A DNA stretch of 58,982 bases from an uncultured Candidatus Poseidoniales archaeon (GCA_964618995.1 CAZUBQ010000009.1:1-58982); one strand, 5' to 3'; shown: positions 11,120 through 52,858, counted from the stretch's first letter. The notes: generated by a model from the sequence alone, not told the origin. Numbers and translations: made by a program.

Positions 11120-11145
11120 GCTTTCACCTCATCTCCTGCTGACTA

Positions 11146-16723: not shown

Positions 16724-16818
16724 CGGTATCGCCCCCACTATGTGGGGGCTGTACGTGTACGAACCTTGCTCCATTTGTCTTAAGTGCCAAAGGAACCGGT
16801 TGCGAAGTGGGTCCAGAC

Positions 16819-37696: not shown

Positions 37697-39250
37697 TCAC
37701 AATGGGATGTTACCATGCTTACGCGCCGGGCGCTCCTCCTGTTTGTCGAGCAGCATGCCCAGCGCCTTCACCAATCTAGAACGGGTATCACTCGGTTCGA
37801 TGACATCGTCGATGTAACCGAGGGCCGCTGCCTTGTACGGGTTCGCGAACAACTCCCCGTACTCCTCGACCAGTCGTTCCCGTTCCTGACTGGGATTGGC
37901 TGCCTCTTCGATGCGCCGGCGATGGATAATCTGCACTGCACCATCGGCTCCCATCACGGCCAGTTCAGCGGTTGGCCAGGCGATGTTGTAGTCACCACGT
38001 ATGTGCTTAGAGCACATCACGTCATATGCGCCACCGTACGCCTTGCGCATGATAACTGTCAGTTTCGGGACGGTGGCCTCTGAGTAAGAGAACAGGAGTT
38101 TGGCACCATGGCGGATGATTCCGCCCCATTCCTGGCTGGCACCGGGCAGGAATCCGGGAACGTCAACGAAGGTGAGCAACGGGATGTTGAACGCGTCGCA
38201 GAAGCGGACGAACCTCGCCCCTTTCACGCTAGCATCGATGTCCAGACAGCCGGCGAGCACCTGTGGTTGGTTGGCTACCACGCCGATAGGGTGCCCTCCT
38301 AGGCGAGCGAATCCGGTCACGATGTTGGCGGCGAACTCCCGCTGTGACTCCAGGAACTCTCCGGAATCGACGATTTCAGTGATGACATCGAGTACATCGT
38401 AGGGCTTGTTAGAATCTTCGGGAATGATGTCGCTGAGTGCGTCGCAGCTGCGGTCAAGGGGATCAGAACAGGAGTGGCTCGGCGGGGTCTCGAGGTTGTT
38501 GAGCGGCATATGACCGACCAACCTGCGAACCAGATGCAGGGCATCTTCGTCATCGGATGCGGTGAAGTGGGTCACACCGGACTTGCTGGCGTGTGTGCTC
38601 GCTCCTCCGAGTTCTTCGAACGTCACCTGTTCGTTGGTGACAGTGCGAATGACCTCTGGTCCGGTGATGAACATATGCGCTGTCTGGTCTACCATGATGA
38701 CGAAATCCGTGATTGCCGGTGAGTAGACCGCACCCCCTGCGCATGGACCCATGATCACGCTAATCTGTGGTATGATGCCACTCGCCTGCACGTTGCGGAA
38801 GAAGATCTCAGCGTAACTACCCAAGCTCGCAACTCCCTCTTGGATGCGCGCCCCACCACTGTCGTTCAGGCCAATCACCGGTGCCCCGGTCTTGAGCGCC
38901 ATGTCCAGAACCTTGCAGATCTTGAGGCCGTGCATCTCACCGAGTGAGCCCCCGTAGGCCGTGAAGTCCTGTGAATAGCAGTAGACCGGCCGACCGTCGA
39001 TCATCCCATGACCTGTGACCACGCCATCGCCGGGGATGACCTTCCTGTCCATCCCGAAATCGCGGCAGCGATGCTCGACCAGCGAATCAATCTCTTCGAA
39101 GGTGCCATCATCGAGCATCAGTTCGAGACGTTCACGAGCGGTCAGTTTGCCTTTTGCATGCTGAGCATCTACTTTAGCCGCGCCGCCACCCGCCTCAGCT
39201 TGGGACTTGCGTCGGCGCAGGTCACTGAGCCTGTCGTCGTTCTCCTCCAT
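37697..39250 (-). CDS. pccB: propionyl-CoA carboxylase beta chain / methylmalonyl-CoA carboxyltransferase (12S type)
   Basis: '[17 protein letters not shown]', '[12 protein letters not shown]' and '[11 protein letters not shown]'; 517 aa. These are typical acyl-CoA carboxyltransferase features. Confidence 0.9.
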
Positions 39251-39292
39251 GCAATCGTTGATTCGAACAACTGAGTGCCGTTTATTGTCTTG

Positions 39293-39311
39293 GCGTCACC
39301 TACGGTGACGC
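39293..39311. promoter_or_regulatory. perfect palindrome GCGTCACC-TAC-GGTGACGC between the divergent pccB and mcm/meaB operons
   Basis: Read directly: 8-bp arms with a TAC spacer, 43 nt from the pccB ATG (39250) and 66 nt upstream of the preferred mcm start (39377). Candidate operator or leader hairpin. Confidence 0.4.
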
Positions 39312-39376
39312 TGAACTGCAGAGATAATGGAGAAGTTGTCGTTCAATTGAAGGGGGTCAGGCGACTCGATGCCTAC

Positions 39377-39841
39377 GTGAGCACCCCGTTACGCATCGTG
39401 ATTGCCAAGCCGGGTCTCGATGGCCACGACCGCGGCGCCAAGGTCATCGCCCGCGCACTGCGAGATGCCGGGCACGAGGTCATCTACACTGGATTGAGAC
39501 GGTCACCCGAGCAGATAGTACGCACTGTGATGGACGAGGATGCTGATCTGCTTGGCCTGTCCAGCCTTTCAGGAGCACACGACTTCCTATTTCCACGGGT
39601 CTGCACGCTGCTCGTCGAGGCTGAACTGTTGGATGTGGTGGTGTTCGGTGGTGGTATCATCCCGGATGCAGACCGCCCTCCGCTGCTCGAACAGGGAATT
39701 CGAGCCATCTTTGGCCCTGGAACCACGATTGAGGAGATGTTGGCATTCGTCTCAGAACTGCGTGAACGTAGGGCGGCCGGTGAGCCGAGTGGGGTCGGGG
39801 AAGGCGGAGACTGGACTTGGCAGGGTATTGGTGAGGCCTGA
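39377..39841 (+). CDS. methylmalonyl-CoA mutase small subunit (cobalamin-binding domain)
   Basis: B12-binding motif 'AKPGLDGHDRGAKVIARALRDAGHEVIYTG'. I prefer GTG 39377 ('VSTPLRIVIAKPG') over the ORF-opening GTG 39275, which would leave only 24 nt for two divergent promoters. The start is uncertain. Confidence 0.85.
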   Translation: MSTPLRIVIAKPGLDGHDRGAKVIARALRDAGHEVIYTGLRRSPEQIVRTVMDEDADLLGLSSLSGAHDFLFPRVCTLLVEAELLDVVVFGGGIIPDADRPPLLEQGIRAIFGPGTTIEEMLAFVSELRERRAAGEPSGVGEGGDWTWQGIGEA

Positions 39842-40722
39842 TGGACGCTGCAACCGCTCATGCCGCCGCCAAAGCTGGTGATCGCAGGTCACTTGCCCGC
39901 TTGCTGACATTAATCGAATCAGGAAACATCAACGGCGCTGAACTCGGATTCAGTTCCCGCGAGGAAGATGGACGCATCCTCGGGGTGACGGGCTCACCCG
40001 GCGTCGGGAAGAGTTGCCTCGTCGACAGGCTGCTCCATGATTGGGCGGCTGCAGGCGAGAAGGTGGCGGTGCTGGCAATCGATCCTTCGTCACCGGTCAC
40101 CGGTGGAGCCCTGCTCGGAGATAGGATGCGCATGCAGGCCGCTGACGACCTCGACGAGGTGTACGTGCGTTCGGTCGCCACGCGCAATCAACCCGGAGGC
40201 CTGCCGGTCCGGCTCGGTGCCATGGCAGAGGCACTGCTCGACTGCGGTTATCACAGAGTGATCGTCGAGACGGTCGGCACTGGTCAGGCTGAGGTCAGAA
40301 TCGTGGCCGTGGCCGACCGGGTGCTGCTGGTCGAAGGTCCGGCAAGGGGCGATTCGATTCAGGCTGAGAAGGCCGGCCTGCTCGAACTGGCCGACATCGT
40401 GGCCGTCAACAAGTCAGACCTGGACGGCGCTGACAGGTTCTCTGAGGAGATCCGAGGCTCTCTGGAACTGAGCGGCCAGGCGCCACCCGTGATACTGGTG
40501 TCAGCGCTCGAAGGAACGGGGATTCCAGAACTGGTGAGCGCGCTCGAACAGTTGGGGCCAGCTCGTGCCGCCCAACGCGCTCGCTGGCGCGAACGGTTGC
40601 TGTCTGAATGGGAGGCGGCCTTGCTCACGAGAGACGATGTCGAACAACTGCTCGACAGTCTGGAGTCTGGTGATACTAGTGTATCTCAGATAGTTGATAC
40701 ATTCTATAGAGGGTGTGACTGA
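39841..40722 (+). CDS. meaB: methylmalonyl-CoA mutase-associated G-protein chaperone MeaB/ArgK
   Basis: P-loop 'GSPGVGKSCLVDRL', 'ETVGTGQ' and 'VNKSDL'. Its ATG overlaps the mcm stop (TGATG). Confidence 0.9.
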   Translation: MDAATAHAAAKAGDRRSLARLLTLIESGNINGAELGFSSREEDGRILGVTGSPGVGKSCLVDRLLHDWAAAGEKVAVLAIDPSSPVTGGALLGDRMRMQAADDLDEVYVRSVATRNQPGGLPVRLGAMAEALLDCGYHRVIVETVGTGQAEVRIVAVADRVLLVEGPARGDSIQAEKAGLLELADIVAVNKSDLDGADRFSEEIRGSLELSGQAPPVILVSALEGTGIPELVSALEQLGPARAAQRARWRERLLSEWEAALLTRDDVEQLLDSLESGDTSVSQIVDTFYRGCD

Positions 40723-41373
40723 ATGACTAATGACCTACTATTGGAACCGGATGATTACGAGCCTGACCATGTGAAGCACAGCGTTGGAGGTATGGGTGGC
40801 CATCTGTTCCGAAGGGCGGTTCACCTTGCCATGGCCATCCTGCCATGGATCTATTATTGGAATGGCGATTACGTTGCTGAATTGTTCAGTGTCACCCCCC
40901 CTCAATTTGCCAGTGCGGTCGTTCTCATACTCATCATGGCCGAGGTAGTGCGTCTCAAGATAGGATTCACCATCGTCGGGCAACGAGAATACGAGGCACA
41001 TCAGATCAGCGCGCTCGCCTGGGGTGCAATCGGCGTGGGATTGGTTCTGCTCGTTGCTCCCGAAGGGGGACTGAACGGAGCAGCATACGGAGCTCCGCTC
41101 ATCTGGTCGCTGACGTTCGTCGACCCTTTGATGGGTGAATTGCGTCGCGCTGATGCGGCCCCTCGCACAGTCGCAATCGCGGGAGTCGTGGCCTGTGCGC
41201 TTGTCTGGGTCGGTTGTGGATTCTGGCTTGGCACCCCCTTATGGCTGGCCCTGCTGATGGCCCCGGTGACCGTGGCGGCAGAGTGGCCACGTCTTCGGTG
41301 GATTGACGACAACGGGATGATGGTGCTCGTGCCCTTCACCCTGTTGCTCTTGCTGTATCCATGGTTCGTCTGA
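40723..41373 (+). CDS. polytopic membrane protein, possibly of the CTP-dependent polyprenol/dolichol kinase (COG0170-like) family
   Basis: About 6 hydrophobic helices. 'LFRRAVHLAMAI' and 'FVDPLMGELRR' loosely match the family pattern (basic-x-x-H near helix 1 and a D...G motif). The ATG abuts the meaB stop. Confidence 0.35.
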   Translation: MTNDLLLEPDDYEPDHVKHSVGGMGGHLFRRAVHLAMAILPWIYYWNGDYVAELFSVTPPQFASAVVLILIMAEVVRLKIGFTIVGQREYEAHQISALAWGAIGVGLVLLVAPEGGLNGAAYGAPLIWSLTFVDPLMGELRRADAAPRTVAIAGVVACALVWVGCGFWLGTPLWLALLMAPVTVAAEWPRLRWIDDNGMMVLVPFTLLLLLYPWFV

Positions 41374-41626: not shown

Positions 41627-43495
41627 ATGTGCGGCATTACTGGCTCGTTGGGTGGCGGGGATGCTGACCTTGTGCACAGGATGGCAACGTCACTGCAGCA
41701 TCGCGGCCCTGATGGCGTGCGCACGTGGGCCGACGACGATTGCTCGCTCGGGCATTCGCGACTTTCGATCGTCGATCTGAAATCATCTGACCAGCCGATC
41801 GGCTCGGAACATGGCTGCTGGTTGGTGCAGAACGGGGAGATCTACAATCAGGTTCCACTAAGAGCGGCAGAGACGGCATATCCGTGGCGTACGAAGGGTG
41901 ATGCAGAGGCCATACTGGCAGCGCACGCGGCAGCGATTCCAGCCCCGACCACTCCACCTGGTCCGGCCTCGAAGGGCGTCCGCGTCGGTTGGGTGAACCG
42001 CGCTCGCGGCGCCGCGCAAGCAGGTGGTGAGGCTGCTCGGCATGTCGAATGGGTCAGTCGACTGGATGGGATCTGGGGTTTCGCACTCTGGGATGCCCGC
42101 TATCGTGAACTGATTCTGTGCCGTGACCCCCTCGGCGTCAAACCTCTGCTACGAACGCAGATGGATGACGGGCTCCTGCTGTTCGCTTCTGAGGCGAAGG
42201 CGTTTCGCTACCATCCAGAATACGAGCCAGTGATGGATGAGGCAGCCATGGTCGCCCGGCTGGCCTACGAATATCCGCTGGATGAGACCAGCCTGTTCGC
42301 TGGGGTGGCTCAGGTGCGGCCGGGCACGATTGAGACGTGGCGGCTTGAAGAATCCGGGATTGCTGTGCTCACTGGTGTTGCTCGCTATTCGCGCGACGAG
42401 GTGAAGCCGGCAGCGAGTTGGAATCCAGAGACCGATGCCGCAGCACTGCTCGACAGCCTGTGCGAATCGGTAGAGGACCGCCTGATGTCCGATGTGCCGC
42501 TCGGCATCATCCTCTCGGGTGGCCTAGATTCCAGCATGGTCGCGGGCTTGGCCCATCGGGCAGCTAAGGCTGCTGGGAAACCGGTCCCAGAATGCTGGAC
42601 GGTCGCTGAGAGTGAGGACAATCCTGACTTCCGCGCCGCTGAGGAAGTGGCCGCCGCGCTCGACCTCGGCCATCACACGAGCACGCTTGAGGAAGAATCG
42701 TTCTGGAAGAGGCTCCCCGCACTCGCCTGGCACGGCGAGGATCTGGATATCTCCGTACTATTCTTCCAGCCGTTGTTCGAGCATATGGCTCGTGACGTCA
42801 AGGTTGGTCTGTGCGGCCAAGGAGCAGACGAATTGCACGGTGGCTATCCACGCTACCGCGACCTGTCTGCGCACCGAGAAATCGTGCGCGGGCGGCTGAT
42901 GTCAAGCCGGCATCCGGTAGCGGATGCGATGTTGGATCCTGAGCCGCAGCGAGGTGCACTCGTGGGATTCGGCCAGCCGTGGAGAACGCTAGACCACAAT
43001 CCCGAGGATCATTTCTGTGACCTCAAGTCAACATTGCAGTTCGAGTTGGAGCACGGTCAGTTGAGCAACTTCCAGTTGCGGCTGGTCGACCGCCACAGCA
43101 TGGCGCACGGCTTGGAGGTGCGCGTGCCGTTCCTCGGCAGAGCCCACCGGAAGATGGCGCACACCTTGCCGCTGGATTGGCGGGTCCGGGGCAGCGATGA
43201 GAAACTGGCCCTCCGCGCCGCTGCAGCCTTGACTGACCTGCCACCGGACATCGTCAGCCGCCCGAAACTCGCCGCAGGCACTGCAACCACACCAACACTG
43301 CTCGCCGAACTGCTGACTGAACTCAGGCCGCGCGCGCAGGAATGGGCAGCTGCACACCCAAGGCTGGAGAGGATGCTGGCGAAGCAGCCGGACATGGCAA
43401 TAGGACTGCGCCTGTTCGAATCGCTGCATCTGGTGGACGGCGGCCGCGGCAGAGAGGGCAAAGACCTGATGACCCTCCTGGATGACATTGATTGA
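41627..43495 (+). CDS. asnB: asparagine synthase (glutamine-hydrolysing) family amidotransferase
   Basis: N-terminal nucleophile 'MCGITG' (the start must be ATG 41627, not the upstream GTG), 'HRGPD', 'NGEIYN' and PP-loop 'SGGLDSS'. It carries a ~40-aa Ala/Pro/Gly-rich insertion after 'EAILAAHAA'. Confidence 0.85.
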   Translation: MCGITGSLGGGDADLVHRMATSLQHRGPDGVRTWADDDCSLGHSRLSIVDLKSSDQPIGSEHGCWLVQNGEIYNQVPLRAAETAYPWRTKGDAEAILAAHAAAIPAPTTPPGPASKGVRVGWVNRARGAAQAGGEAARHVEWVSRLDGIWGFALWDARYRELILCRDPLGVKPLLRTQMDDGLLLFASEAKAFRYHPEYEPVMDEAAMVARLAYEYPLDETSLFAGVAQVRPGTIETWRLEESGIAVLTGVARYSRDEVKPAASWNPETDAAALLDSLCESVEDRLMSDVPLGIILSGGLDSSMVAGLAHRAAKAAGKPVPECWTVAESEDNPDFRAAEEVAAALDLGHHTSTLEEESFWKRLPALAWHGEDLDISVLFFQPLFEHMARDVKVGLCGQGADELHGGYPRYRDLSAHREIVRGRLMSSRHPVADAMLDPEPQRGALVGFGQPWRTLDHNPEDHFCDLKSTLQFELEHGQLSNFQLRLVDRHSMAHGLEVRVPFLGRAHRKMAHTLPLDWRVRGSDEKLALRAAAALTDLPPDIVSRPKLAAGTATTPTLLAELLTELRPRAQEWAAAHPRLERMLAKQPDMAIGLRLFESLHLVDGGRGREGKDLMTLLDDID

Positions 43496-43506
43496 GGGAG
43501 ACACGC

Positions 43507-44736
43507 ATGGAAGCATTCAGCGGACCCGAACTGCTCGCGCAGTTCCAGCCACGCCTCGAGGATGCCCGCCCCGCGCTCACAGAATTCTTCTCCCGCCAAC
43601 GTGCCGAGCTACCCGACCCGATCTACGGCTCCATCGACGTGCGTGATGCTGGTTGGAAGGTGGCCGCCGTCGATGCCAACGCCTTCCCGGCAGGCTTCAA
43701 CAATGTCGGCCGCCGGGGCCGCCGGGGCCTCTCCCAGTGTCTGGTCGCTTGGTTAGACCGCGAACATCCGGAAGCGAAGCACATCCACATCTGGCCTGAG
43801 AGCCATACCCGTAATCCGGGTTATGTAGAGAGCCTGCGTGTACTCTCCAACTTGCTCTCCCAGAAGGGCCGCTGGGTCACCATTGGCTCACCTGAACTCG
43901 CCGGAATCTCCACACTCGAAGGTAACGAAGGTGAACTGCTTCTTTCAGCGGTGAACCAGACTGGGGATGGACTGTTGGTCGAGGGAGTAACCCCTGACCT
44001 GCTGCTGCTCAACAACGACCTGACCGCAGGACCCTTGACTGGACTCGGTAATCTGCCGGTCACGCCTCCTGAGGGGATGGGTTGGCACAGTCGACGCAAG
44101 TCATCCCACTTCCGCGCCGTGCAACCGTTAATCGACGAGGTCGCCGAACTCATCGGAATCGACCCGTGGCTGCTCGGGACACACTGGCTGGTCTCAGAAT
44201 CCAAATGCCTCGAACGTGAATCCTGCCTGATTGAGTTGGCCGCAGAGGTGGACGAGTGCTTCGGATTCATCCGAGGGAAGTATGTGGAATACGGGATCGA
44301 GGGAGAGCCTGTTATGTTCGTGAAAAATGAATCAGGGACCTATGGTTTAGGCATTATCGAGATTCGCTCGGGCGGGGAGCTTCTCGACCTGTCAAAGCGT
44401 AGACTGAACCGCCTCACCTATGGGAAAGGTGGGCAGGATGCGGAGGATTTCCTGCTTCAGGAAGGAGTGCCGACCGCTCTCCGCTGGGGTGACTCAGTGG
44501 TAGAGCCGTGCATGTATGGCGCCGGAGGACGTGTGTGCGCCTGGTTCTACCGCACAAACGACCGCAAGGGGGTGATTGCCAACCTCAACTCCCCCTCCAG
44601 TCGCTTCCACACCCCAGAGGATCTTGAGGGCGATGCGGACGTCGCAGACCTGCTTGAAAGGGCCGAAGGTTGGCATGGCCTGATTGCGGAAATTGCGCTG
44701 TTGGGGATGGCTGTCGAGATGGCGGAACTCAGTTGA
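43507..44736 (+). CDS. glutamate-cysteine ligase-like protein (GshA, 'T. ferrooxidans-type' family as I recall it)
   Basis: 'PIYGSIDVRDAGWKVAAVDANAFPAGFNNV' matches my memory of the N-terminal signature of the ~400-aa GshA family (TIGR02049-like). ATG 43507 is preceded by GGGAG. Needs HMM confirmation. Confidence 0.55.
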   Translation: MEAFSGPELLAQFQPRLEDARPALTEFFSRQRAELPDPIYGSIDVRDAGWKVAAVDANAFPAGFNNVGRRGRRGLSQCLVAWLDREHPEAKHIHIWPESHTRNPGYVESLRVLSNLLSQKGRWVTIGSPELAGISTLEGNEGELLLSAVNQTGDGLLVEGVTPDLLLLNNDLTAGPLTGLGNLPVTPPEGMGWHSRRKSSHFRAVQPLIDEVAELIGIDPWLLGTHWLVSESKCLERESCLIELAAEVDECFGFIRGKYVEYGIEGEPVMFVKNESGTYGLGIIEIRSGGELLDLSKRRLNRLTYGKGGQDAEDFLLQEGVPTALRWGDSVVEPCMYGAGGRVCAWFYRTNDRKGVIANLNSPSSRFHTPEDLEGDADVADLLERAEGWHGLIAEIALLGMAVEMAELS

Positions 44737-44747
44737 TGAATCGCCCC

Positions 44748-45044
44748 TCAGTCATCCATTCCACTTTCCTCGTCTTCGGCGCCTTCGAGGGTCTCCATGC
44801 CGGTGATTTCGTAATTAGAGGGGAACAGGGCGATGGCGATGCCGGCAATCGCAGCGGCGAGGCCCCACCAGAATCGCTGCTGAACGATCATCATCTCGAG
44901 GGCGATGACGCACAGGAAAAGTCCACCTAGATTTGAGATCCACACCAGCGTCTTGAACGTCGACACCGAGACACCGCGGGTGCGACTCGAGCGGTAGGGT
45001 CCGAACTCAGCCCCGAACCGGACCGGATCTTCTTCCTCTGCCAT
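44748..45044 (-). CDS. small two-TM membrane protein (98 aa)
   Basis: Hydrophobic segments 'LVWISNLGGLFLCVIALEMMIV' and 'FWWGLAAAIAGIAIALF'. It is the last gene of the Rieske/cyt b cluster, 12 nt after the ferredoxin gene. Confidence 0.55.
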   Translation of the reverse strand: MAEEEDPVRFGAEFGPYRSSRTRGVSVSTFKTLVWISNLGGLFLCVIALEMMIVQQRFWWGLAAAIAGIAIALFPSNYEITGMETLEGAEDEESGMDD

Positions 45045-45056
45045 CGTTCATCCCTC

Positions 45057-45389
45057 TCAGCGGTCAATGGACACGATGGCCTTCGTTGGACAGGCGAGCA
45101 CGCATAGCCTGCAGCCGGTGCAGTTGTCGCGTATCACCCGCGCCTTGCGGTTGATGTCTACGTTGATGATCGGTGAGCGGTTGGGCACGTCATAGAGCTC
45201 GATTGCTTTGTCGTCACAGACGATCATGCACTGGTCACAACCGATGCACGCCTCCTCGTTGACGAACGCCACCACGTCGTCCCCACCGCGAATCTCTTCG
45301 CGCTGCTTGGTACGCATGCGATTCATCATCAACATGACTCGATCCGTCTCGGCTTGGCGCCGCGCGGCGAGTTCATCCAGCGTGGTCAT
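45057..45389 (-). CDS. 2x[4Fe-4S] ferredoxin-domain protein
   Basis: 'CIGCDQCMIVCD' and 'CTGCRLCVLACP' follow the CxxCxxCxxxC(P) pattern. Confidence 0.85.
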   Translation of the reverse strand: MTTLDELAARRQAETDRVMLMMNRMRTKQREEIRGGDDVVAFVNEEACIGCDQCMIVCDDKAIELYDVPNRSPIINVDINRKARVIRDNCTGCRLCVLACPTKAIVSIDR

Positions 45390-45456
45390 CGGTCATCCTC
45401 GGATTCATCCGGGTGGTCACCCATTCTCAATGCTGCGCTCGCCCACTCGCGCTGAT

Positions 45457-48351
45457 TCAGCTGCTCGCTTCGACCGAAGTGCCACTGGAATCTTCAGATG
45501 AGATTTGAATCGCCTCAGTCCCTGCAGCCTTCTTCTCGTCGACCTGACGAGCGAGGAAGGAGACCACATCGAGGATCTCGAAGTCGTATCTCGCATCGCC
45601 TTCGAACTTGAGACACTCGAAGTGCGCCACGCACTTCGGGCAACTGGTGAGCATCATGTCGGCGCCGGTGGCGAGCACCTCTTCGAATCTGGCGATGCGC
45701 ACGATGCGGCTGTCCTCGTTGCATGACTGCATTGCTGATACTCCGCAGCAGCCACCCTCCTCGCGGTTGTGCTCCATCTCGACCAACTCCACACCCTTGA
45801 CCGCCTTGACGAGGTCACGCGGGGGCTCGTAGAGGTTCATGTGTCGGCCCAGTCGACAGGGATCGTGGAAGGTGACCTTCGTCTCGTCTTCGACGGCGAG
45901 GTCCACTTCGTAGCCGTTCTCGACGAGATACTCGGTTGTGTGCATCACCTTCATGTCCAGTTCGTAATCGAGCGAGAACGTCCTGAAACACTCGGCGCAG
46001 CTGGTGACCAGTGTGTCGATGCCGGTTTGCCCGAGCTTCTTCTGATTGTACGCTCTGAGCTTCTCGAACACCTCGGTCATACCCTGCCACTTCTGGTCGT
46101 GCCCGCTGCATTTGAGGAAATCGCGCCCGAGATATGACACATCCAGGTCAGCCTCCTCGAACAGGGTGAACGCCGCCGTGGTGGTCTCGCCCAGATTCAT
46201 CGAGCCGTGGTTCTTGTGGCTGAAGATCATCTCCTGGTCGAAGTAGTCAACGCACCCTCCGTAGTAACCGACGTTGGAGTCGATCGGGTAGTCCTCCACT
46301 GAGATGAAATCGTCATCGAACTCCTCCTCTGCCTCGGCGATCATCACCGCTGAGAGCACCGAGTGCGGGATGTCCGCCTCCGGCGGGCCACCCACGACGA
46401 GGTTGCGGCGGATGTCGACGTAGGTGTCGTAGTCGACCAACTGCGGGCAGGCGTTGGTGCACGCACCACAGGTGAGGCAGGAGTACATCGGCACGCCGTC
46501 GTGTTCGTTGTTCCAGGTGTTGTAGATGATGTTCAGCTTGTCACCGGCGTTGAACATGCGTACCGGACAGGCGTCGTCGCACAGGTCACACCCGTAGCAC
46601 TTGTTCATCTCATACTCGTAGCCGCGCGCCATGCCGCGCATGGTGACGTAGACGACCGCACCGACTCCCAGGCAGGGAATGAACAGGGAGTAGGTCAGTT
46701 TGGCGTCGAGGCTCTTCGGGTTACGATGGTAGGTCGGGTTCTCCACCGCCAGGGCCATCAGGGCAGCGTCATCGAGGTTGGTGGTGCCACGGTCAACTGC
46801 CATCCCTGTATCTGGGTCGAGGAACAGCGGCTGGAAGGCCAGCACGGAGGATGAGGCATCGACTGTGACGGTGGCGTTCTCTGGGGTGTTGAAGGTGGAA
46901 TCGAGTGTGAAGTCGACCGTGTATGTACCCGGAGCGAGATGGACAGTGCGCGTGACGCAGGTCGAGCCTTCCTCGGGGTCGCCCGCCAGCGATGCGACCA
47001 CCGTGCCAGCTGTATTACTGACTGAAAGGCCGAGCGTGTGGTCGCCGGCCTTACGCGTGCTCGTGCGGAAAGTGCAGCCGAGGTCCACCTCGGTCGTCTC
47101 CAGACCGAGGTCCTCGATGACCAGCGCGTATGTGCTGCTGGTGCTGTGAGTCCCGTTGGACTGGTAGGAATCGCTCAGCGCGTTGGTACCGCTGGTCACC
47201 TCTCCGGCAACGGTGTGCACCTGCTGGTGGTTGTTTGCGTCGGAGAAATCGATGATCTGTTTCTGAGTCGGTTGATGAATCGTCCAATCGAGCCAACGAT
47301 TCGCAGGTATCAGGCACCAGTCGCCCCTGTCTTCAGCATCGTCCCCGTTGAACATCTTGTCCTCCCACACAGCGTTCTCGCCACTGTTCGCGTAGGTCAG
47401 GCAGGCCGTCTGCAAATCATCCCAGTCGTGCCCCTCTTCGATGGCTACGAGCGTGTCAGAAGGCTGGCCGCGCATCGTGGCTAGATCATCGACATCGTCC
47501 ATGGCGCCGAACCCACCGAGGTCCCAGAAACCGTTGTCGTACACAGGCCAGGCGAACGCGGAGAACAGCACAGTCACGACCAACGTTCCCAAGGCGACCT
47601 GTTTGCCTAGCCGAGGAGTCGTCCTGGCTCCCGCTGACGTTACCAGGAACCAACGTATCGCGAAGTATAGCGCCACCCAGATGAAGATACCAGTCAATAT
47701 CCATGGAGAGGCGTTGAACACATCGGCCAGCCAAGGTTCGCGGACCCCGCAACTCAATCCTGCATGCGAGTTATGCAGGCAGAAATCGGAGCGGTTCTTG
47801 GCATAGATGTCGAGGAAGATGTTGATCGAATACACGGAGATGAACCAGACGTGCGCCAGATAGATGGCTCCCGCAGTTGCGAACCACGGGTCCTCCACAC
47901 CCCGCTTGGCGCGCCCCCCGAGGAACGGTGGCAGCGCTAGGATTCCAACAGGGAAGCCTGTCAGGAATGCCCCCCACCAGCCTGCGTTCCAAGAGATGAT
48001 CGGGCTGCCGAAGAAGTTCCCGATGATGCTCGGCAGCGGGATGTCGAACTGCGGCAGGTACTCTCCCCAGCGGAGGTATCCGTAGGAGAACAGCACGTAC
48101 CAGTCGGGGAACACGAAGCCGGCTTGGGCGAACGGGTCGGCGGAGTTGTGCAGGGGCGGCGGGATGATCCACGAATAGAACAGGAGCACTGCCATCATGG
48201 AGGCGAAGATGATGCTGTCACGCAGCACCTCGTGCGGCCAGAACGGATGTCCCGTGAACACCCTGCGACGCTCTTTCTCAGCGTCGCGCAACTGCTCCTT
48301 CTCGCGGATGTAGACGTCAGCGATGCGCCCGAAATTATCCATCAAACCCAT
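45457..48351 (-). CDS. fusion protein: cytochrome b C-terminal (subunit IV-like) domain + extra TM helices + ~270-aa extracytoplasmic domain + TM + HdrD/GlcF/GlpC-type Fe-S module with CCG domains
   Basis: Qo-site motif 'FPDWYVLFSYG' at aa 82-85. Fer4 motifs 'CYGCDLCDDACP' and 'CLTCGACTNACP' from aa 585. CCG-type motifs 'GGC...KCSG...SCAEC' (degenerate) and 'HDPC...GGCCG...SCPKC' (canonical). Confidence 0.8.
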   Translation of the reverse strand: MGLMDNFGRIADVYIREKEQLRDAEKERRRVFTGHPFWPHEVLRDSIIFASMMAVLLFYSWIIPPPLHNSADPFAQAGFVFPDWYVLFSYGYLRWGEYLPQFDIPLPSIIGNFFGSPIISWNAGWWGAFLTGFPVGILALPPFLGGRAKRGVEDPWFATAGAIYLAHVWFISVYSINIFLDIYAKNRSDFCLHNSHAGLSCGVREPWLADVFNASPWILTGIFIWVALYFAIRWFLVTSAGARTTPRLGKQVALGTLVVTVLFSAFAWPVYDNGFWDLGGFGAMDDVDDLATMRGQPSDTLVAIEEGHDWDDLQTACLTYANSGENAVWEDKMFNGDDAEDRGDWCLIPANRWLDWTIHQPTQKQIIDFSDANNHQQVHTVAGEVTSGTNALSDSYQSNGTHSTSSTYALVIEDLGLETTEVDLGCTFRTSTRKAGDHTLGLSVSNTAGTVVASLAGDPEEGSTCVTRTVHLAPGTYTVDFTLDSTFNTPENATVTVDASSSVLAFQPLFLDPDTGMAVDRGTTNLDDAALMALAVENPTYHRNPKSLDAKLTYSLFIPCLGVGAVVYVTMRGMARGYEYEMNKCYGCDLCDDACPVRMFNAGDKLNIIYNTWNNEHDGVPMYSCLTCGACTNACPQLVDYDTYVDIRRNLVVGGPPEADIPHSVLSAVMIAEAEEEFDDDFISVEDYPIDSNVGYYGGCVDYFDQEMIFSHKNHGSMNLGETTTAAFTLFEEADLDVSYLGRDFLKCSGHDQKWQGMTEVFEKLRAYNQKKLGQTGIDTLVTSCAECFRTFSLDYELDMKVMHTTEYLVENGYEVDLAVEDETKVTFHDPCRLGRHMNLYEPPRDLVKAVKGVELVEMEHNREEGGCCGVSAMQSCNEDSRIVRIARFEEVLATGADMMLTSCPKCVAHFECLKFEGDARYDFEILDVVSFLARQVDEKKAAGTEAIQISSEDSSGTSVEASS

Positions 48352-48360
48352 GATTACACC

Positions 48361-49236
48361 TCAATGCGGCTCCGCTATCCCTTGTACCCAGACGATGAAC
48401 AGGTGTACGATGATCAGCGCTGTGACAATGACAGGCAGGATGAACACGTGCAGGAAGTACATCCTCGTCACGGTCGCCCCCGAAAGGCTGGTTCCCCCGA
48501 ACAACGCTTTAGCGACCCATCCACCAATCAATGGCGTCGAGTTCGCCATGTTGATGCCGATAGTGGCGGCGCCGAAGGCGAGTGCATCCCACGGAAGCAG
48601 ATAGCCCGAGTATCCGAAGAAGATGGTGAAGAACATCAGACCGACCCCGATGAGCCAGTTGAGTTCTCGGGGGTTGCGGTAGGCGCCGGTGAAGTAGACG
48701 CGGCACATGTGCAGGAACACCGAGGCGACCATGAAATGCGTCCCCCAGTGGTGCAGCGAGCGCATGATGTAGCCGAACGGCAACTGTGTCATGATGAACT
48801 GCATGCTGCCATAGGCAGGACTCGGGTCACCCTCCCCTCCCGGGACGTAGTAGATTCCGAGCACGGTGCCGGTGATGATCAGCAGGATGAACGCCAGGAA
48901 GGAGATTCCGCCGAGACAGTAGAGTGGATACCAGTACCAGATGATACGCAGTTTGTACTTCTCGGCATGCGTCATCGGCATCTGCCTGTGCATGCTGTGG
49001 TAAGCGTCGCGGCTCATCGCCCAGTAGTCCTGGATGCGGAAGCGGGTGTCTAGCCAGGAGAACACCCATAGGAACAGCTTCTCCGCCAGCCCCATCCTAG
49101 TTGATGCTTCGACTGCGCGCAGAATCTCCTTGCGCGGCATCTCCTCGCTCTCTTTGCGCAGGGTGAAGGCTACGAGCACCACGATCAGCGCGATGAACAG
49201 CCACAGGAACCAGAATTGCAGTATCATCTCATTCAC
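48361..49236 (-). CDS. cytochrome b, N-terminal (b6-like) half
   Basis: Haem-ligand pairs 'LHHWGTHFMVASVFLH' (H-x13-H) and 'HVFILPVIVTALIIVH' (H-x14-H), plus 'LPWD'. Four predicted TM helices. Confidence 0.9.
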   Translation of the reverse strand: MNEMILQFWFLWLFIALIVVLVAFTLRKESEEMPRKEILRAVEASTRMGLAEKLFLWVFSWLDTRFRIQDYWAMSRDAYHSMHRQMPMTHAEKYKLRIIWYWYPLYCLGGISFLAFILLIITGTVLGIYYVPGGEGDPSPAYGSMQFIMTQLPFGYIMRSLHHWGTHFMVASVFLHMCRVYFTGAYRNPRELNWLIGVGLMFFTIFFGYSGYLLPWDALAFGAATIGINMANSTPLIGGWVAKALFGGTSLSGATVTRMYFLHVFILPVIVTALIIVHLFIVWVQGIAEPH

Positions 49237-49239
49237 CTC

Positions 49240-50115
49240 TCAATCGCAATATGTGTACCAGTCGAGCATCGCCTCGATTCCCTCTGCGGCGAAGTCGACG
49301 ACCTCGATGACATCGTTGTTCACGGTGAACGGGATGAGTGGCATTCCTACAGGTGTCGGGCCACCGGTCCGCTTGATTCCGAAGTATTGGAACACCGTCC
49401 CGCTGGCGCGGTTGCGGTTGGTGTTCTTCTCTACGACAGTGGGGTCGTAGCGGCTGGAGTGGCAGATGCAGAACAGTTTGTTGCCCCCTGAGTCGAGGCC
49501 GCCCGGCTCCCAGTTATCGGCGGTGAAGTTGTTCTCGATGAGCTGCCAGCCGGGGATGCAGCAGAGATGCGGGCAGCGGCCGAAGATGACCAGGATGTTG
49601 TTGCTCACCTTGAGAGAGGCATATGCCGAATCCTCCTCCATATCTCCACCGTAGCCGATGATGGCACCGGTCTGGTCGACGCCATCCATGAACTGGATTC
49701 TCGGCTTGTTCTGCATCGGTGGGAGATTCTTGTTCTCCTCGTGAGGGATGTAGACGACGTTCACCGGCAGCCCTGACCAGACACCCGAGGCTCCTGACAT
49801 ACCGGTTGTCGATCTTCCCGCCTCTTCCTTGAATCCTGATTCGGTCATGGTCTCGAGGTGCTGGTCACCATACCACACACTGTCCTCGGAACCCTTTGGC
49901 ACCCAGAAGCGGATTGCCGAATCGCCCCCGCCGGTTCCCGTATCGCCCATGAGCAGCGAAGCGAAGCCGATGGCACCGAGGCTGATGGCGGTGATCACGC
50001 CAGCGGCGCTGTTGAACGAGTAGCGGATGAACTGACGCCGGTCAAGCACCTGTCCAGACTCGGCTTCGCCTTCAGGTGACCAGGGCGATTTACGTAATCG
50101 GAATTCACGCGCCAT
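49240..50115 (-). CDS. Rieske [2Fe-2S] protein with a twin-arginine leader
   Basis: Tat motif 'DRRQFIRYS' with a TM helix. Cluster boxes 'CPHLCC' and 'CICHSSRYD' (C-x-H ... C-x-x-H). Confidence 0.9.
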   Translation of the reverse strand: MAREFRLRKSPWSPEGEAESGQVLDRRQFIRYSFNSAAGVITAISLGAIGFASLLMGDTGTGGGDSAIRFWVPKGSEDSVWYGDQHLETMTESGFKEEAGRSTTGMSGASGVWSGLPVNVVYIPHEENKNLPPMQNKPRIQFMDGVDQTGAIIGYGGDMEEDSAYASLKVSNNILVIFGRCPHLCCIPGWQLIENNFTADNWEPGGLDSGGNKLFCICHSSRYDPTVVEKNTNRNRASGTVFQYFGIKRTGGPTPVGMPLIPFTVNNDVIEVVDFAAEGIEAMLDWYTYCD

Positions 50116-50118
50116 GTC

Positions 50119-50568
50119 TCACACCTTGTAATCGAACCAGCTGTCCGGGTCCTTCCTGCTCATGTACTTGTTTCGCCGATGCTTGACGATGACGACATCG
50201 GGCATGACCCACTTCAGGTAGACGATACCCATGATGATCAGCGTCACCATCGTCATCCCGAAGAAGAATGAGAGTAACTGCTGGTTCCAGTCAGCGAACA
50301 ACCCGTAAGTCGTCGCACCTGCCCAATAGAGCGTCCACGCCAATCCCCAGACGAAAGTGAGCACCACCAATGCCGACTCGCCGGTCGGAGACATGCTAGC
50401 CCTGACGATCGTGCCAGGATCAGGTTCGTTGAACACGCCGTGATCGAGCGCTGAGATGTAGGTGTCCTCGTCGAGTTCAACTCCCTCCAACGCTGCTCGG
50501 GCGTCCTCGACACTGACTTTGCCGCCGGCCACCTGCTCAAGCAGTTTCATCACCATGTCCCGCTTCAT
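50119..50568 (-). CDS. two-TM membrane protein (149 aa) of the Rieske/cyt b operon
   Basis: Soluble N-terminal helix pair 'LLEQVAGGKVSVEDARAAL', then TM helices 'ALVVLTFVWGLAWTLYWAGA' and 'FFFGMTMVTLIIMGIVYL'. There is a 3-nt gap to the Rieske gene. Confidence 0.6.
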   Translation of the reverse strand: MKRDMVMKLLEQVAGGKVSVEDARAALEGVELDEDTYISALDHGVFNEPDPGTIVRASMSPTGESALVVLTFVWGLAWTLYWAGATTYGLFADWNQQLLSFFFGMTMVTLIIMGIVYLKWVMPDVVIVKHRRNKYMSRKDPDSWFDYKV

Positions 50569-50587
50569 TTGGAAAGCCTCCAGTCAC

Positions 50588-51424
50588 TCATACCTGGTCA
50601 CCTCTCCTCAGATGCTTGATGCGCAGTTTCAGCAGGTTGCTGCGCCCCTCGTAGTGGCGGCTGAACCCGAATCGCAGGAAGAAGCCGCAGAACAGAATCA
50701 CCGTGATCACTGCAGCGAATCCTAGCAGACCGAGCCAGTGAGCACGGAATTTCGCACCCATGTGGTGCAGGTCGAGTTCCCCTGAGTGCGCTTCAGGTGC
50801 GGCTATGTTGCCATCACCGGCGAATACGGTGCGGGTGCGCCCATCATCCTCGCCTTCACCGAGCGTCAGCGACAGCCGGTTCCAAGCATCGGGGGCCATC
50901 GGCGCGTGATTGCCATCGACCGAGTTTCCAGACAGCCAGATGCCAACCTCGCCGCTTTCAGCACTAGGTGCGGTCCAAATCACCACCCAGGTGCGGTCAG
51001 CGGTCAGCGCCCCTGACGCAGTGTGGGTCAGCGTGGTGGCATCGTCACCGTTCTGAACCAGTGAATCGAAGCCTGATGCGGCCGAGAGTTCACCTGCGCT
51101 GACGCGCATCGAGAAACCTCCCGTGTTCGAGGAAGTGTCAATCGAGGGGCCGCCGATGAGTTGGATTGTCAACTCGTATGCCGAGCCCGCCGTCCAATGG
51201 TACGGGACTCCGTCGAGGATGAGGGTGACGGAGTTAGAGGGGGTGATTGCGTTGTTCGTGTGGCAGGTGCAGCCGGCCGCCGCCACATCGGTTCCACCTT
51301 CAGCCTCATCACCTGTTATTCCCCCTGAACGGGCTTGGCTCGCACTGGCCAGAAGAAGCGTCAGCAACACGACTGCCAACAGTGGTCTGAGACGGCTTGA
51401 CAAACGACGCATGGAATACCCCAC
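50588..51424 (-). CDS. secreted, C-terminally TM-anchored beta-sandwich-like protein with a 'GCTCH' motif (first gene of the Rieske/cyt b operon)
   Basis: Signal peptide 'RLRPLLAVVLLTLLLASASQA', then 'AAAGCTCHTNN...GGFSMRV...WVVIWTAPS...NSVDGN'. C-terminal TM 'WLGLLGFAAVITVILFCGFFL'. No family is confidently recognised. Confidence 0.6.
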   Translation of the reverse strand: MGYSMRRLSSRLRPLLAVVLLTLLLASASQARSGGITGDEAEGGTDVAAAGCTCHTNNAITPSNSVTLILDGVPYHWTAGSAYELTIQLIGGPSIDTSSNTGGFSMRVSAGELSAASGFDSLVQNGDDATTLTHTASGALTADRTWVVIWTAPSAESGEVGIWLSGNSVDGNHAPMAPDAWNRLSLTLGEGEDDGRTRTVFAGDGNIAAPEAHSGELDLHHMGAKFRAHWLGLLGFAAVITVILFCGFFLRFGFSRHYEGRSNLLKLRIKHLRRGDQV

Positions 51425-51573
51425 CTATGGTGAATCGACCGACCTGATTCGGTCTAATAATCGTTTGCTGATGAGCCGGTCACGACTGCGCCGCAGTCCC
51501 TCGATTTCCACCATAGAAAACAGTCGACCTCAAGGCTGCGCTGGAGCGCCGTACGTGCAAAGGGCTGAAGTGG

Positions 51574-51912
51574 GTGAGCGGACCGCGGTCAGTCGAGGTG
51601 TGGTCGGTGACCGAGAGAAGGTGGAAGAACGTCTACCAATTGACTGACGATCAACTGGCTCGGCTAGACGAGGCCGAGGCGCTGATGGAGCGCCATGACC
51701 TGTCGGCTGCGGAGGTGCTTCTCAAGGAGATGGAGGAGGAGGACCCTCTCTGCATTCCTGTGCTCTCGGTACTCGGCCACCTGTACGGGAAGTATCTCTC
51801 TGAGTTTGAGAGGGCGGTCGAGTACTATGAGAAGGTGCTAGAGCGAGAACCCGACAACGCCTGGGCTCGCGATGAGCGCAGACGCTACCAAAGATACCTG
51901 ACATACGACTGA
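51574..51912 (+). CDS. small TPR-like protein
   Basis: 'LGHLYGKYLSEFERAVEYYEKVLEREPDNAWA' fits a TPR helix pair. GTG start is uncertain. It lies 43 nt upstream of the FtsZ-like gene on the same strand. Confidence 0.5.
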   Translation: MSGPRSVEVWSVTERRWKNVYQLTDDQLARLDEAEALMERHDLSAAEVLLKEMEEEDPLCIPVLSVLGHLYGKYLSEFERAVEYYEKVLEREPDNAWARDERRRYQRYLTYD

Positions 51913-51955
51913 GTCATCCGAAAGTTCAACGGTTCGCATAGCCCCGGGTGGAGAC

Positions 51956-52858
51956 ATGCACGACGGCAGCATACTCGTGGCGGGAGTCGGAGGGCTCGGC
52001 TGCCTGTGGGCGCGCCGCGCCCACGACAACTGCTCCGACTACGCCGATTTGCTGCTGGTCGATGCCGACGATCGGTCGTTCGAAGATGCTCGCCACGCAC
52101 ATTGTCTTCCCTTGGGAGACACTTCATCGCAAGGATGCGCCGCTCTTCCCGAACTGGCCGAGTCACACATGCGCCGCGCCAAGTCTCTGACCGAGCAGAT
52201 GCTGGCACCGGTCGAACTCATGCTGCTGCTGACAGGTCTCGGGGGCGGAGTTGGCACGGGTGCCGCACATGCCCTGGCGACCCAGGCGAAGCAGAGTGGC
52301 GCGCTGGTGCTGTCTGTCGCCGCCTCTCCATTCGAGGACCAACCAGCCAGATGCAATCTGGCAGAGGCCGCCCTTCCCCGCCTCGAGGATGCATCTGATG
52401 TGTGCGTGCGACTGTCGCTCGACCGACTGGCGTGGCAGGCTAGAGAGCGCGGGGCTGACTGGAGACGAGACGCCTCATGGGTGGAGGAACTTGTGCAGGG
52501 CATCGTTCTCACTCTCGGCCGCGTCGGACTGATCAATCTCGACCTGATGGATCTGAGGGCAGTGGTCGGCCACATAGGGGAGGCCACATTGTTGGTGGCT
52601 GAGGGTGATGCCACGGACCCCGAGGCGCTGTTCCGTTCAGCGCTCGCATCCCCGCTCGCAGAGCTGCAAGTGCAGGGGGCATCCGGATGTCTGCTGCAGA
52701 TCGAGGGCGGACGGCGCATGACGGTGGCTCAGGTGAACTCAGTCGCCGACGCGTTCACCCGCGGATTCAGCGACGACTCACAGGTGATCCTTGGTGCAAG
52801 GATGGCTGACGAACTAGACGGCAGCATGCGCGTTGTCGCTGTGGTAAGCGGTCTATAG
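51956..52858 (+). CDS. divergent FtsZ/tubulin-superfamily protein, core only (300 aa)
   Basis: It aligns by eye over the whole FtsZ core: 'ILVAGVGGLGC' (T1), 'LLLTGLGGGVGTGAA' (T4 signature), 'SPFEDQ', 'GLINLDLMDLRAV' (T7) and the C-terminal domain '...GCLLQIEGG...VILGARMADELDGSMRVVAVVSGL'. ATG is preceded by GGTGGAG. Confidence 0.8.
   Translation: MHDGSILVAGVGGLGCLWARRAHDNCSDYADLLLVDADDRSFEDARHAHCLPLGDTSSQGCAALPELAESHMRRAKSLTEQMLAPVELMLLLTGLGGGVGTGAAHALATQAKQSGALVLSVAASPFEDQPARCNLAEAALPRLEDASDVCVRLSLDRLAWQARERGADWRRDASWVEELVQGIVLTLGRVGLINLDLMDLRAVVGHIGEATLLVAEGDATDPEALFRSALASPLAELQVQGASGCLLQIEGGRRMTVAQVNSVADAFTRGFSDDSQVILGARMADELDGSMRVVAVVSGL

Follow-up and report, generated by a model that had tools for sequence, protein, structure and literature searches.

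A b6f-type complex III in Marine Group II archaea whose subunit IV is fused to an HdrD/EtfD-like iron-sulfur module: a candidate cytoplasmic electron input port

The third redox subunit of Rieske/cytochrome b complexes is already known to vary among archaea. In Sulfolobus SoxLN-CbsAB, which has no cytochrome c1, the c1 role is thought to be played by CbsA, an exported and membrane-anchored heme b glycoprotein, and no iron-sulfur (Fe-S) tail is known in that complex. In cytochrome b6f and in the b6-type menaquinol:cytochrome c reductases of Firmicutes and Heliobacteria, cytochrome b is split into a four-helix cytochrome b6 and subunit IV, with heme ligands spaced H-x13-H and H-x14-H, a cysteine for heme cn, a PEWY-type loop at the quinol oxidation (Qo) site and a Rieske protein exported by the twin-arginine translocation (Tat) pathway. 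The same features, with PDWY as the Qo loop, are found in the seven-gene cluster (O1 to O7) described here, which lies in a 58,982-nucleotide (nt) stretch of DNA from an uncultured Candidatus Poseidoniales (Marine Group II) archaeon (GCA_964618995.1 CAZUBQ010000009.1:1-58982; hereafter the window). The Marine Group II form nevertheless differs from b6f in several respects, since it has no c-type cytochrome and a Reeler-fold CxCH protein instead, its subunit IV (part of O5) carries three additional transmembrane (TM) segments, an outside domain and an Fe-S module of 390 amino acids (aa), it comes with a dedicated ferredoxin and a DUF7318 protein, and its host is an archaeon.

The Fe-S module has its closest counterparts in EtfD and EMO (M. 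smegmatis, structure 9ojn, and Syntrophus aciditrophicus), which oxidise electron transfer flavoprotein (ETF) with (methyl)menaquinone as acceptor and likewise have two cubane and two CCG (non-cubane) clusters on the cytoplasmic side, directly after a TM segment. In EtfD, the CCG clusters are non-catalytic and hand the electrons of ETF over to two cubane clusters, from which they reach heme b and menaquinone (PMC13083937), and in EMO they are again a non-catalytic electron entry (bioRxiv 10.64898/2026.08.18.745454). EtfD and EMO have, however, a 5-TM HdrE/NarI-like domain of their own, with one to three hemes b and a quinone site, whereas the membrane part of O5 is a heme-less subunit-IV domain that needs a separate b6-type cytochrome and a Rieske protein; moreover, the cluster has no adjacent ETF genes, most Marine Group II sequences have a complete first CCG motif (CCG-1), and Glu replaces EtfD His583. 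The membrane heterodisulfide reductase HdrDE and its relatives DsrMK, TfrB, GlpC and SdhE also combine a Fer4 dicluster and two CCG motifs with a membrane cytochrome b system, but the partner is of the HdrE/NarI type there and of the bc type here, their curated cut-offs are widely missed, and, going by what has been published on Marine Group II, these archaea have no methanogenic cofactors. An earlier reading of the window made from its letters by themselves (the sequence-only reading) had stated that CCG modules usually partner NarI-type and not bc-type cytochromes b; they are indeed otherwise known with cytochromes of the HdrE/NarI type, and neither the EtfD paper (PMC13083937) nor the EMO preprint (bioRxiv 10.64898/2026.08.18.745454) mentions a bc-type partner. 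A Rieske/cytochrome b core with a cytoplasmic redox module, proposed to link its low-potential branch to a cytoplasmic carrier, is conceptually present in anammox complexes (PMC12954380), which differ in being bacterial and anaerobic and in using an FAD/NAD(P) protein and multiheme cytochromes, and whose function is also unproven.

Few archaea of the surface ocean are as abundant as Marine Group II, which are still uncultured and whose energy metabolism has been inferred from genomes alone. They are portrayed as aerobic heterotrophs that degrade proteins and fatty acids and carry acyl-CoA dehydrogenases; a canonical bc1 is missing, although cytochrome b and Rieske proteins are encoded (an 'MGII specific complex III'), and a single 'RnfB' occurs with no RnfACDEG (PMC6336850). 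No description of the fusion of a subunit IV to an HdrD-like protein was found in searches of an open-access library, Marine Group II papers included, and the fusion is absent from a survey of archaeal fusions, a paper on cytochrome bc evolution, the EtfD/EMO papers and the Hydrothermarchaeota papers, an earlier mention elsewhere being possible. The sequence-only reading, too, had known of no characterised complex with such a composition. What is new, within that literature, is the combination of two known kinds of machinery in one complex.

The seven open reading frames (ORFs) of the cluster occupy 44748-51424 on the minus strand, with intergenic gaps of 19, 3, 3, 9, 67 and 12 nt from O1 to O7:

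O1, 50588-51424, minus strand: 278 aa, exported Reeler-fold ('choice-of-anchor V') ectoprotein with a C-terminal TM anchor
O2, 50119-50568, minus strand: 149 aa, 2-TM membrane subunit of family DUF7318
O3, 49240-50115, minus strand: 291 aa, Tat-exported, N-terminally anchored Rieske [2Fe-2S] protein
O4, 48361-49236, minus strand: 291 aa, cytochrome b6-type protein
O5, 45457-48351, minus strand: 964 aa, subunit-IV domain fused to an outside domain and a cytoplasmic Fe-S module
O6, 45057-45389, minus strand: 110 aa, 2x[4Fe-4S] ferredoxin
O7, 44748-45044, minus strand: 98 aa, 2-TM protein

The sequence-only reading had listed these seven same-strand ORFs, separated by 3-67 nt, with exactly the same coordinates. 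Its two-TM assignments for O2 and O7 agree with hydropathy, which gives two helices in each, and its remark that no c-type cytochrome (CxxCH) is present extends to four motif variants, since CxxCH, CxxxCH, CxxxxCH and CxxCK have zero occurrences across the seven proteins.

Relatives were sought in a scan of one genome per species, in which 374 loci encode one; the best 80 of these are all from Marine Group II (Poseidoniales). The order O1-O7 is unchanged in all 80 as far as the contigs reach (66-80 loci per gene, 55-99% identity), and in sibling genomes the genes are clustered and not scattered, the outcome that the sequence-only reading needed. The cofactor ligands are conserved as well: the heme histidines of O4 in 82 of 82 loci, the Rieske ligands of O3 in 74-75 of 75, and the cysteines of O6 wherever it is reached. 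It is because gene order is kept in 80 loci and these ligands are invariant that the cluster can be considered as beyond chance. Full-length homologues of O5 (917-969 aa, 60-96% identity) are very numerous in marine metagenomes; the named sources are Candidatus Poseidoniales, Thalassarchaeaceae or Poseidoniaceae (Marine Group II a and b), and databases annotate these proteins only as 'Fe-S oxidoreductase' or 'heterodisulfide reductase-related'.

Sequence and profile comparisons identify the complex as the respiratory complex III of Marine Group II, a quinol oxidoreductase with a Rieske/cytochrome b core of the b6f type: its cytochrome b is split over separate genes (O4 and O5), helix D has the H-x14-H spacing, and a cysteine occupies the heme-cn position. 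Pfam Cytochrome_B matches O4 at 4.4e-42, and the best solved relatives of O4 are cytochromes b6 (1.1e-42). Alignment to b6 bears out the H-x13-H and H-x14-H spacings that the sequence-only reading had counted by hand, the ligand pairs being H162/H176 and H263/H278. That reading had rightly seen the N-terminal half of cytochrome b in O4 but had overlooked an extra N-terminal TM helix, which hydropathy places ahead of helices A-D. The LYCLGG of O4 aligns to FYCIGG of b6, with Cys107 at the position of b6 Cys35, which is the heme-cn site (the Cys is kept in 80 of 81 loci), and Cys107 probably carries a covalent heme cn. O3 matches TIGR01416 at 6.5e-9, aligns with bc1 Rieske proteins in the PDB and has both boxes, CPHLCC (I) and CICHSS (II), together with a twin-arginine motif (RR in 67-69 of 69 loci), so its earlier designation as a Tat-exported Rieske protein stands, Pfam Rieske being only weak (0.097, 13 against a cut-off of 20.3). 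The conservation of O3 covers the cluster ligands, the disulfide cysteines and Ser221 alike (74-75 of 75 loci). A serine ending box II raises the cluster potential in bc1 Rieske proteins, and by that analogy Ser221 hints at a high-potential cluster.

The other half of the split cytochrome b is found at the N-terminus of O5, which can be divided into four regions:

O5 aa 1-275, 47527-48351, minus strand: cytochrome b C-terminal half/subunit IV, with helices E, F and G, two extra TM segments and PDWY
O5 aa 276-551, 46699-47526, minus strand: variable, acidic extracellular beta-sandwich of low conservation, in the Marine Group II version only
O5 aa 552-639, 46435-46698, minus strand: last TM segment, then the dicluster C585/588/591/595 and C625/628/631/635
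O5 aa 695-911, 45619-46269, minus strand: two CCG (non-cubane Fe-S) domains

The Pfam model Cytochrom_B_C, by which the sequence-only reading had proposed to verify the first region, finds no match in the window's O5 at E<=0.1, but the homology itself is recovered by other means. In a phmmer search, aa 31-94 align with aa 25-89 of b6f subunit IV, PEWY/PDWY included (E 0.0023), and a profile of the domain built from 11 family members matches residues ~232-354 of bc1 cytochrome b (1e-13) and subunit IV (7e-9) in the PDB. Moreover, PF00032 is on record for shorter relatives of O5, and PDWY is invariant in the family alignments. Because of the profile matches and of PF00032 in the short relatives, the domain can be assigned to the cytochrome b C-terminal half, and the Pfam miss is no refutation. 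Judged by these matches, the protein annotated as 'Fe-S oxidoreductase / heterodisulfide reductase-related' is the missing subunit IV of the Marine Group II complex III.

Hydropathy and charge give O5 an inside N-terminus, six TM segments, an outside stretch (aa ~273-551) and an inside C-terminal part (aa 573-964). Since Fe-S clusters are built in the cytoplasm and a Tat signal is missing from O5, its Fe-S module must lie on that side of the membrane. The outside domain is modelled by AlphaFold2 (AF2) as beta-rich, with a pLDDT mostly of 75-94, and Foldseek returns generic beta-sandwich matches only (GOLD, tail fibre, ~3e-4); it is absent from the short fusions discussed below. The first Fe-S cysteine comes ~13 residues past the last TM helix, and the dicluster (aa 581-637), whose cysteines are invariant in the alignment, matches Pfam Fer4_9, Fer4_8 and Fer4_10 at ~1e-7, while PF02754 (CCG) matches two stretches at 1.8e-20. 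CCG and Fer4, two of the families whose detection the sequence-only reading had proposed as a check, are therefore found, in agreement with its picture of a 964-aa protein in which an HdrD-like Fe-S module is fused to the cytochrome b C-terminal half. There are indeed two CCG domains, but the first, in the window, reads CSG: CCG-1 consists of C700, C748, Ser749 (Cys elsewhere), C785 and C788, and CCG-2 of C832, C868, C869, C904 and C907.

The closest solved relative of this module is M. smegmatis EtfD, both by sequence (9ojn, phmmer 1.2e-25) and by fold (Foldseek 7.8e-13, followed by LutA and HdrB). The KCSGHD of the window (Ser749, codon 46105-46107) is aligned on TCTGDS of EtfD, in which Thr539 replaces the Hdr cysteine and leads to a linear [3Fe-4S] cluster (PMC13083937). 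Besides the window, only its 96%-identical cluster (P0001) has the CSG variant, CCG being present in 183 of the 187 scanned sequences of Marine Group II type (3 were unmatched by the pattern), and all 187 have Glu at the position of EtfD His583. NCBIfam equivalog cut-offs are missed throughout, TfrB being the best (92.4 bits against 385) and DsrK (29 against 400), HmcF, TmcB and GlpC all scoring lower. Within O5, conservation is highest in the Qo region and next highest in the Fer4/CCG region, the 18 remaining ligand cysteines being invariant across homologues of 60-72% identity and short fusions of 35-38%.

The same fusion exists outside this form in ~8 further 50%-identity clusters (36-43% identity), which were found in an exhaustive search of representative sequences and are rarer than the Marine Group II form. 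These short fusions have a PDWY subunit IV, four TM segments, a Fer4 dicluster and two CCG motifs, without the outside domain, and in three of the five contexts read the fusion is followed by HdrA2/MvhD-type or HdrABC genes. Their surroundings are as follows:

L082, 4808-14955 (and L081): pentaheme c, 77-aa protein, Rieske, cytochrome b, fusion, HdrC, HdrB, tandem HdrA2-like protein (1010 aa), MvhD/FlpD, multiheme c
L083: DUF7318, Rieske, cupredoxin-cytochrome b fusion, fusion, three-gene split HdrA2
L085: downstream module the same as in L083
P0124 contig: 499-aa protein (weak Reeler match), DUF7318, 260-aa protein, cytochrome b, fusion, polyferredoxin and small protein, i.e. the Marine Group II layout

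L082 (GC content 37%) is probably from Candidatus Hydrothermarchaeota, a neighbouring gene's 90% cluster being so named, and its HdrB scores 380 against the TIGR03288 cut-off of 345; its gene content makes it a locus at which a flavin-based bifurcating Hdr may be physically joined to a Q-cycle complex. The split HdrA2 of L083 covers profile positions 140-512, then 1-230 plus the ferredoxin domain, and then 645-773, which is MvhD-like. The 260-aa protein at the Rieske position of P0124 has no family match. Outside domains occur in these relatives as well, fused to cytochrome b and made of cupredoxin plus Big_7 (L083, 6406-7968) or of Big_5 (L085, 5426-7924; P0124), so such a domain is carried by O5 in Marine Group II and by cytochrome b in L083, L085 and P0124. 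The contigs L083-L085 and P0124 are archaeal, judging from neighbours such as A-type ATPase, RFC, archaeal pilin and DUF61.

These relatives are informative for the outside subunit O1, in which hydropathy places a signal peptide ahead of a domain of ~200 aa and a TM helix near the C-terminus, with a basic cytoplasmic tail that is strongly conserved; together with the alignment, this corroborates the signal peptide, TM anchor and GCTCH that had been read from the sequence. Its true start is most likely the ATG at 51412 (274 aa), because a GGTGG lies just upstream and database homologues have 267-277 aa. O1 matches NCBIfam NF041895 ('choice-of-anchor V') at 1.4e-22 (80.3 bits, cut-off 42), and an alignment of 25 homologues shows GCTCH, H130, H216 and H225 to be invariant, and M218 nearly so. 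A search of the PDB by sequence returns nothing at E<=10, and the AF2 model (pLDDT 71) is a beta-sandwich whose best Foldseek matches in the PDB are the Reeler domains of F-spondin (4.6e-6, target-normalised TM-score 0.53). O1-type CxCH homologues head the clusters at the distant loci L084 and L085 (1e-19 to 8e-26) and, among the readable clusters, the outside position alternates between an O1-type CxCH protein, a cupredoxin fused to cytochrome b (L083) and a pentaheme c (L082). Because of this either/or pattern, and of a topology that it shares with cytochromes c1 and f, O1 likely accepts the electron of the Rieske protein, standing in for cytochrome c1/f. SoxLN-CbsAB, too, has a membrane-anchored outside redox protein that is not of c type, from which O1 differs by its Reeler fold and CxCH. 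Descent of O1 from a common ancestor with the pentaheme cytochrome c of L082 was considered and rejected, as BLASTP finds no match (E 4.4) and the two share position and topology alone.

The small subunit O2 matches Pfam PF24002 (DUF7318) at 3.1e-6 and weakly resembles the N-terminal TM region of the actinobacterial Rieske protein QcrA (QcrA_N 0.0018; bc1_QcrA_actin 0.029). A DUF7318 gene holds the position of O2 in the L083 and P0124 loci (5.6e-10 between O2 and the L083 gene), and O2 and O3 together may correspond to a three-TM Rieske protein of the QcrA type, split in two genes.

The ferredoxin O6 has a 40-aa N-terminal extension, matches Fer4_21 at 3.5e-13 and has eight cysteines, invariant in every locus that reaches it, as expected of the 2x[4Fe-4S] protein that the sequence-only reading had taken it for. 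It scores 41.6 bits with the rnfB model TIGR01944, below the cut-off of 68.7, and is probably the orphan 'RnfB' that was reported for Marine Group II. O6 also matches positions 568-624 of the HdrA2 profile (1.2e-6) and, in L083 (4e-6) and L085 (1e-5), the C-terminal part of the gene for an HdrA2 fragment, so it looks like a remnant of the HdrA ferredoxin domain. These matches suggest that the Marine Group II cluster is an aerobic derivative in reduced form, in which the HdrA2 flavin and MvhD parts would have been lost and the HdrA ferredoxin domain kept as O6; in the rarer relatives, which are of anaerobe type, the fusion would be coupled to an HdrA2/MvhD flavin module.

From this set of parts, its topology and its conservation, we infer how quinol might be oxidised and what the tail might do, and the reading that we favour, while giving it not quite an even chance, is that of a complex III with an Fe-S input wire on its cytoplasmic side. 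Quinol would be oxidised at an outside Qo site made by the Rieske protein and the PDWY loop; the first electron would go from the Rieske protein to O1, a carrier and a heme-copper oxidase, and the second through hemes bL and bH, and probably heme cn (Cys107), to the inside quinone site, as in the Q cycle. The wire of O5, with four Fe-S clusters (two cubane [4Fe-4S] and two CCG), would be an additional cytoplasmic entry, taking electrons from a donor through the CCG and then the two cubane clusters to bH/cn and quinone. The donor could be the ferredoxin O6, charged by ferredoxin-linked oxidoreductases, or an ETF-type flavoprotein. Such a complex would be a quinol oxidase and, like EtfD/EMO, a donor:quinone reductase at the same time. 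A parallel is the route from ferredoxin to heme cn that has been proposed for cyclic electron flow in b6f, where heme cn has been suggested to accept electrons from ferredoxin (PMC5600118).

This input-port reading is preferred because (i) EtfD, which is the closest characterised module, runs from a cytoplasmic donor to quinone, (ii) the lineage of the window shows an EtfD-like loss of a CCG-1 cysteine (Ser749), (iii) it is at heme cn that ferredoxin has been proposed to deliver electrons to b6f (PMC5600118), (iv) transfer from ferredoxin or ETF to quinone would be downhill, and the reverse steeply uphill, going by established potentials, and (v) acyl-CoA dehydrogenases and an 'RnfB' in want of an explanation are present in this aerobic, heterotrophic host (PMC6336850). 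The sequence-only reading had instead proposed that the low-potential branch may drain outward, into a cytoplasmic disulfide site and a ferredoxin; EtfD runs the opposite way, and the step from bH to ferredoxin would be steeply uphill. Three features lay beyond that reading, namely the heme-cn cysteine of O4, the Reeler fold of O1 at the place of a c-type cytochrome, and the wider family with its HdrA2/MvhD modules. Several points weigh against an input port: (i) the direction of electron flow is argued by analogy, (ii) the heme cn on Cys107 is read from one aligned residue, (iii) O6 is equated with the published 'RnfB' on an rnfB score under the cut-off, (iv) the 59-kb window contains no etfAB, (v) the Fer4 region of O5 is modelled with low confidence, as is the CxCH segment of O1, a candidate redox site whose cofactor might be copper, heme or other, and (vi) a thiol/disulfide active site is possible, because 183 of 187 sequences keep all ten CCG cysteines, as in catalytic HdrB/HdrD, along with the Glu at the His583 position.

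The last of these points is at the heart of the alternative that survives best, although we consider it unlikely, namely an HdrDE-like disulfide reductase on a bc-type core, which corresponds to the disulfide half of what the sequence-only reading had proposed. The Qo electron would then travel through bL, bH, the cubane and the CCG clusters to a cytoplasmic disulfide, either of low molecular weight (e.g. bis-gamma-glutamylcystine) or in a protein, and recycling at the inside quinone (Qi) site would be replaced or supplemented. The completeness of both CCG motifs in Marine Group II-type sequences outside the lineage of the window argues for it, and so do TfrB, which is catalytic at its CCG site (bioRxiv 10.64898/2026.08.18.745454) and is the best NCBIfam match of O5, and the bona fide HdrB that accompanies the fusion in L082; a glutamate-cysteine ligase gene (GshA, 2e-91), found 11 nt from the end of the cluster and kept there in 40 of 80 loci, is a weak hint in the same direction. 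However, the window lineage misses its CCG cysteine exactly where EtfD is non-catalytic, the GshA adjacency falls within a block that is syntenic as a whole and is absent from a large subclade, and Marine Group II is aerobic and without coenzyme M/coenzyme B metabolism, no candidate substrate being known. Aerobes, moreover, usually rely on NAD(P)H-dependent disulfide reductases. Exposed catalytic non-cubane clusters would also be expected to be oxygen-sensitive (PMC13083937).

Very unlikely, in our opinion, is a quinol-driven reduction of ferredoxin by bifurcation at the Qo site, in which the high-potential branch would push the second electron through the wire onto O6, providing the cell with a low-potential reductant that, in the relatives, would feed HdrA2. 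A dedicated ferredoxin at the end of the wire is what such a machine would need, the conserved Ser221 hints at the larger driving force known from bc1, and anammox Rieske/cytochrome b complexes have been proposed to generate NAD(P)H (PMC12954380). Nevertheless, going by established values, electrons would have to climb hundreds of mV from bH (~-50 to -100 mV in known b6-type enzymes) to a 2x[4Fe-4S] ferredoxin (~-400 mV), against the membrane potential, an aerobic heterotroph hardly needs reduced ferredoxin from quinol, and no characterised enzyme is known to do so. We give hardly any credence to a tail that stands off the main electron path, be it a redox sensor/regulator or an Hdr-linked leftover serving assembly or stability, since the loss of the HdrA2 flavin and MvhD parts in Marine Group II and the dispensable CCG ligand of the window lineage, which would suit it, are set against a Fer4/CCG region so highly conserved, with its 18 invariant cysteines, and an O6 so consistently kept with its eight, in all loci reaching it, that the strength of purifying selection argues for an active redox role.

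Whatever the direction of flow, two loose ends of Marine Group II biology, the 'MGII-specific complex III' and the orphan 'RnfB' (PMC6336850), are now brought together in one seven-gene unit, the second of them provided that O6 is that 'RnfB'. If the Fe-S tail is an electron port, as the input-port reading has it, complex III could receive electrons from the breakdown of peptides and fatty acids that is linked to ferredoxin or ETF. The family with HdrA2/MvhD could offer a natural system for studying how a Q-cycle enzyme exchanges electrons with the cytoplasm, which is debated for cyclic flow in b6f and for anammox bc complexes. A bolder proposal, which is tentative and on balance rather unlikely, is that the cluster is the aerobic, reduced representative of an undescribed class of complexes, in which a Q-cycle core would be hard-wired, via the HdrD/EtfD-like subunit-IV fusion, to cytoplasmic ferredoxin/flavin modules, O1 being a new redox protein with a CxCH cofactor. 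If this were true, the anaerobe-type relatives, with HdrA2/MvhD or HdrABC as a full flavin-based bifurcation unit, would physically couple quinone-based and flavin-based bifurcation in one complex, and Marine Group II would gain a direct route from ferredoxin or ETF to complex III.

The last gene of the cluster, O7, has no Pfam or NCBIfam match; it is found after O6 in 73 loci, always adjoining the cluster. Minor variations occur around O6, with an 85-aa membrane ORF between O5 and O6 in some Marine Group II genomes (10811-11068 in L024), and, in ~10 genomes, an additional gene of ~1.3 kb that separates O6 from O7. In the sole locus of the latter kind that was read (L035, 11204-12424), the insert encodes, on the opposite strand, a 406-aa protein that resembles a glycosyltransferase by sequence reading. 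The intergenic region ahead of O1 has the following features:

51425-51573, divergent intergenic region, no strand assigned: A/T-rich ATTATTA ~45 nt ahead of the ATG at 51412, with a GGTGG ribosome-binding-like site

The ATTATTA element is a putative archaeal promoter. On the other side of this region, two plus-strand genes (51574-52858), for a small TPR protein and for a 300-aa divergent member of the FtsZ/tubulin family, are transcribed away from the cluster, and this pair lies beside O1 in ~65 loci. At the opposite end, the glutamate-cysteine ligase gene (Pfam GshA; 43492-44736, plus strand) is convergent on the cluster, its stop being 11 nt from that of O7, and suggests the presence of gamma-glutamylcysteine-type thiols in the archaeon of the window. 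The adjacency was rejected as proof of a thiol substrate, because it is kept in only half of the loci and the block is generally syntenic.

Elsewhere in the window, a 2-oxoacid dehydrogenase complex is encoded at 5480-12243 on the minus strand (E1 alpha 9878-11119, E1 beta 8857-9870, E2 7601-8920 and E3 6168-7604), its genes being flanked by those for lipoyl synthase (11146-12243) and a lipoate-protein ligase domain protein (5480-6163). Genes at 37697-41373 for a propionyl-CoA carboxylase carboxyltransferase, the B12-binding subunit of methylmalonyl-CoA mutase and MeaB indicate, by homology, a propionate/methylmalonyl-CoA pathway for odd-chain and branched-chain substrates, and a glutamate dehydrogenase is also encoded. 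This gene content fits an aerobic archaeon that degrades peptides and fatty acids. A scan of the window with Rfam and for tRNAs finds two tRNA-Leu genes only, which have no bearing on the cluster. Finally, three very large ORFs of 989, 3022 and 1143 aa, at 13754-25788 and 30257-33688 on the plus strand, presumably encode giant surface proteins, the first having no Pfam match at 1e-5 and the last showing a weak beta-propeller (SBBP) repeat only.

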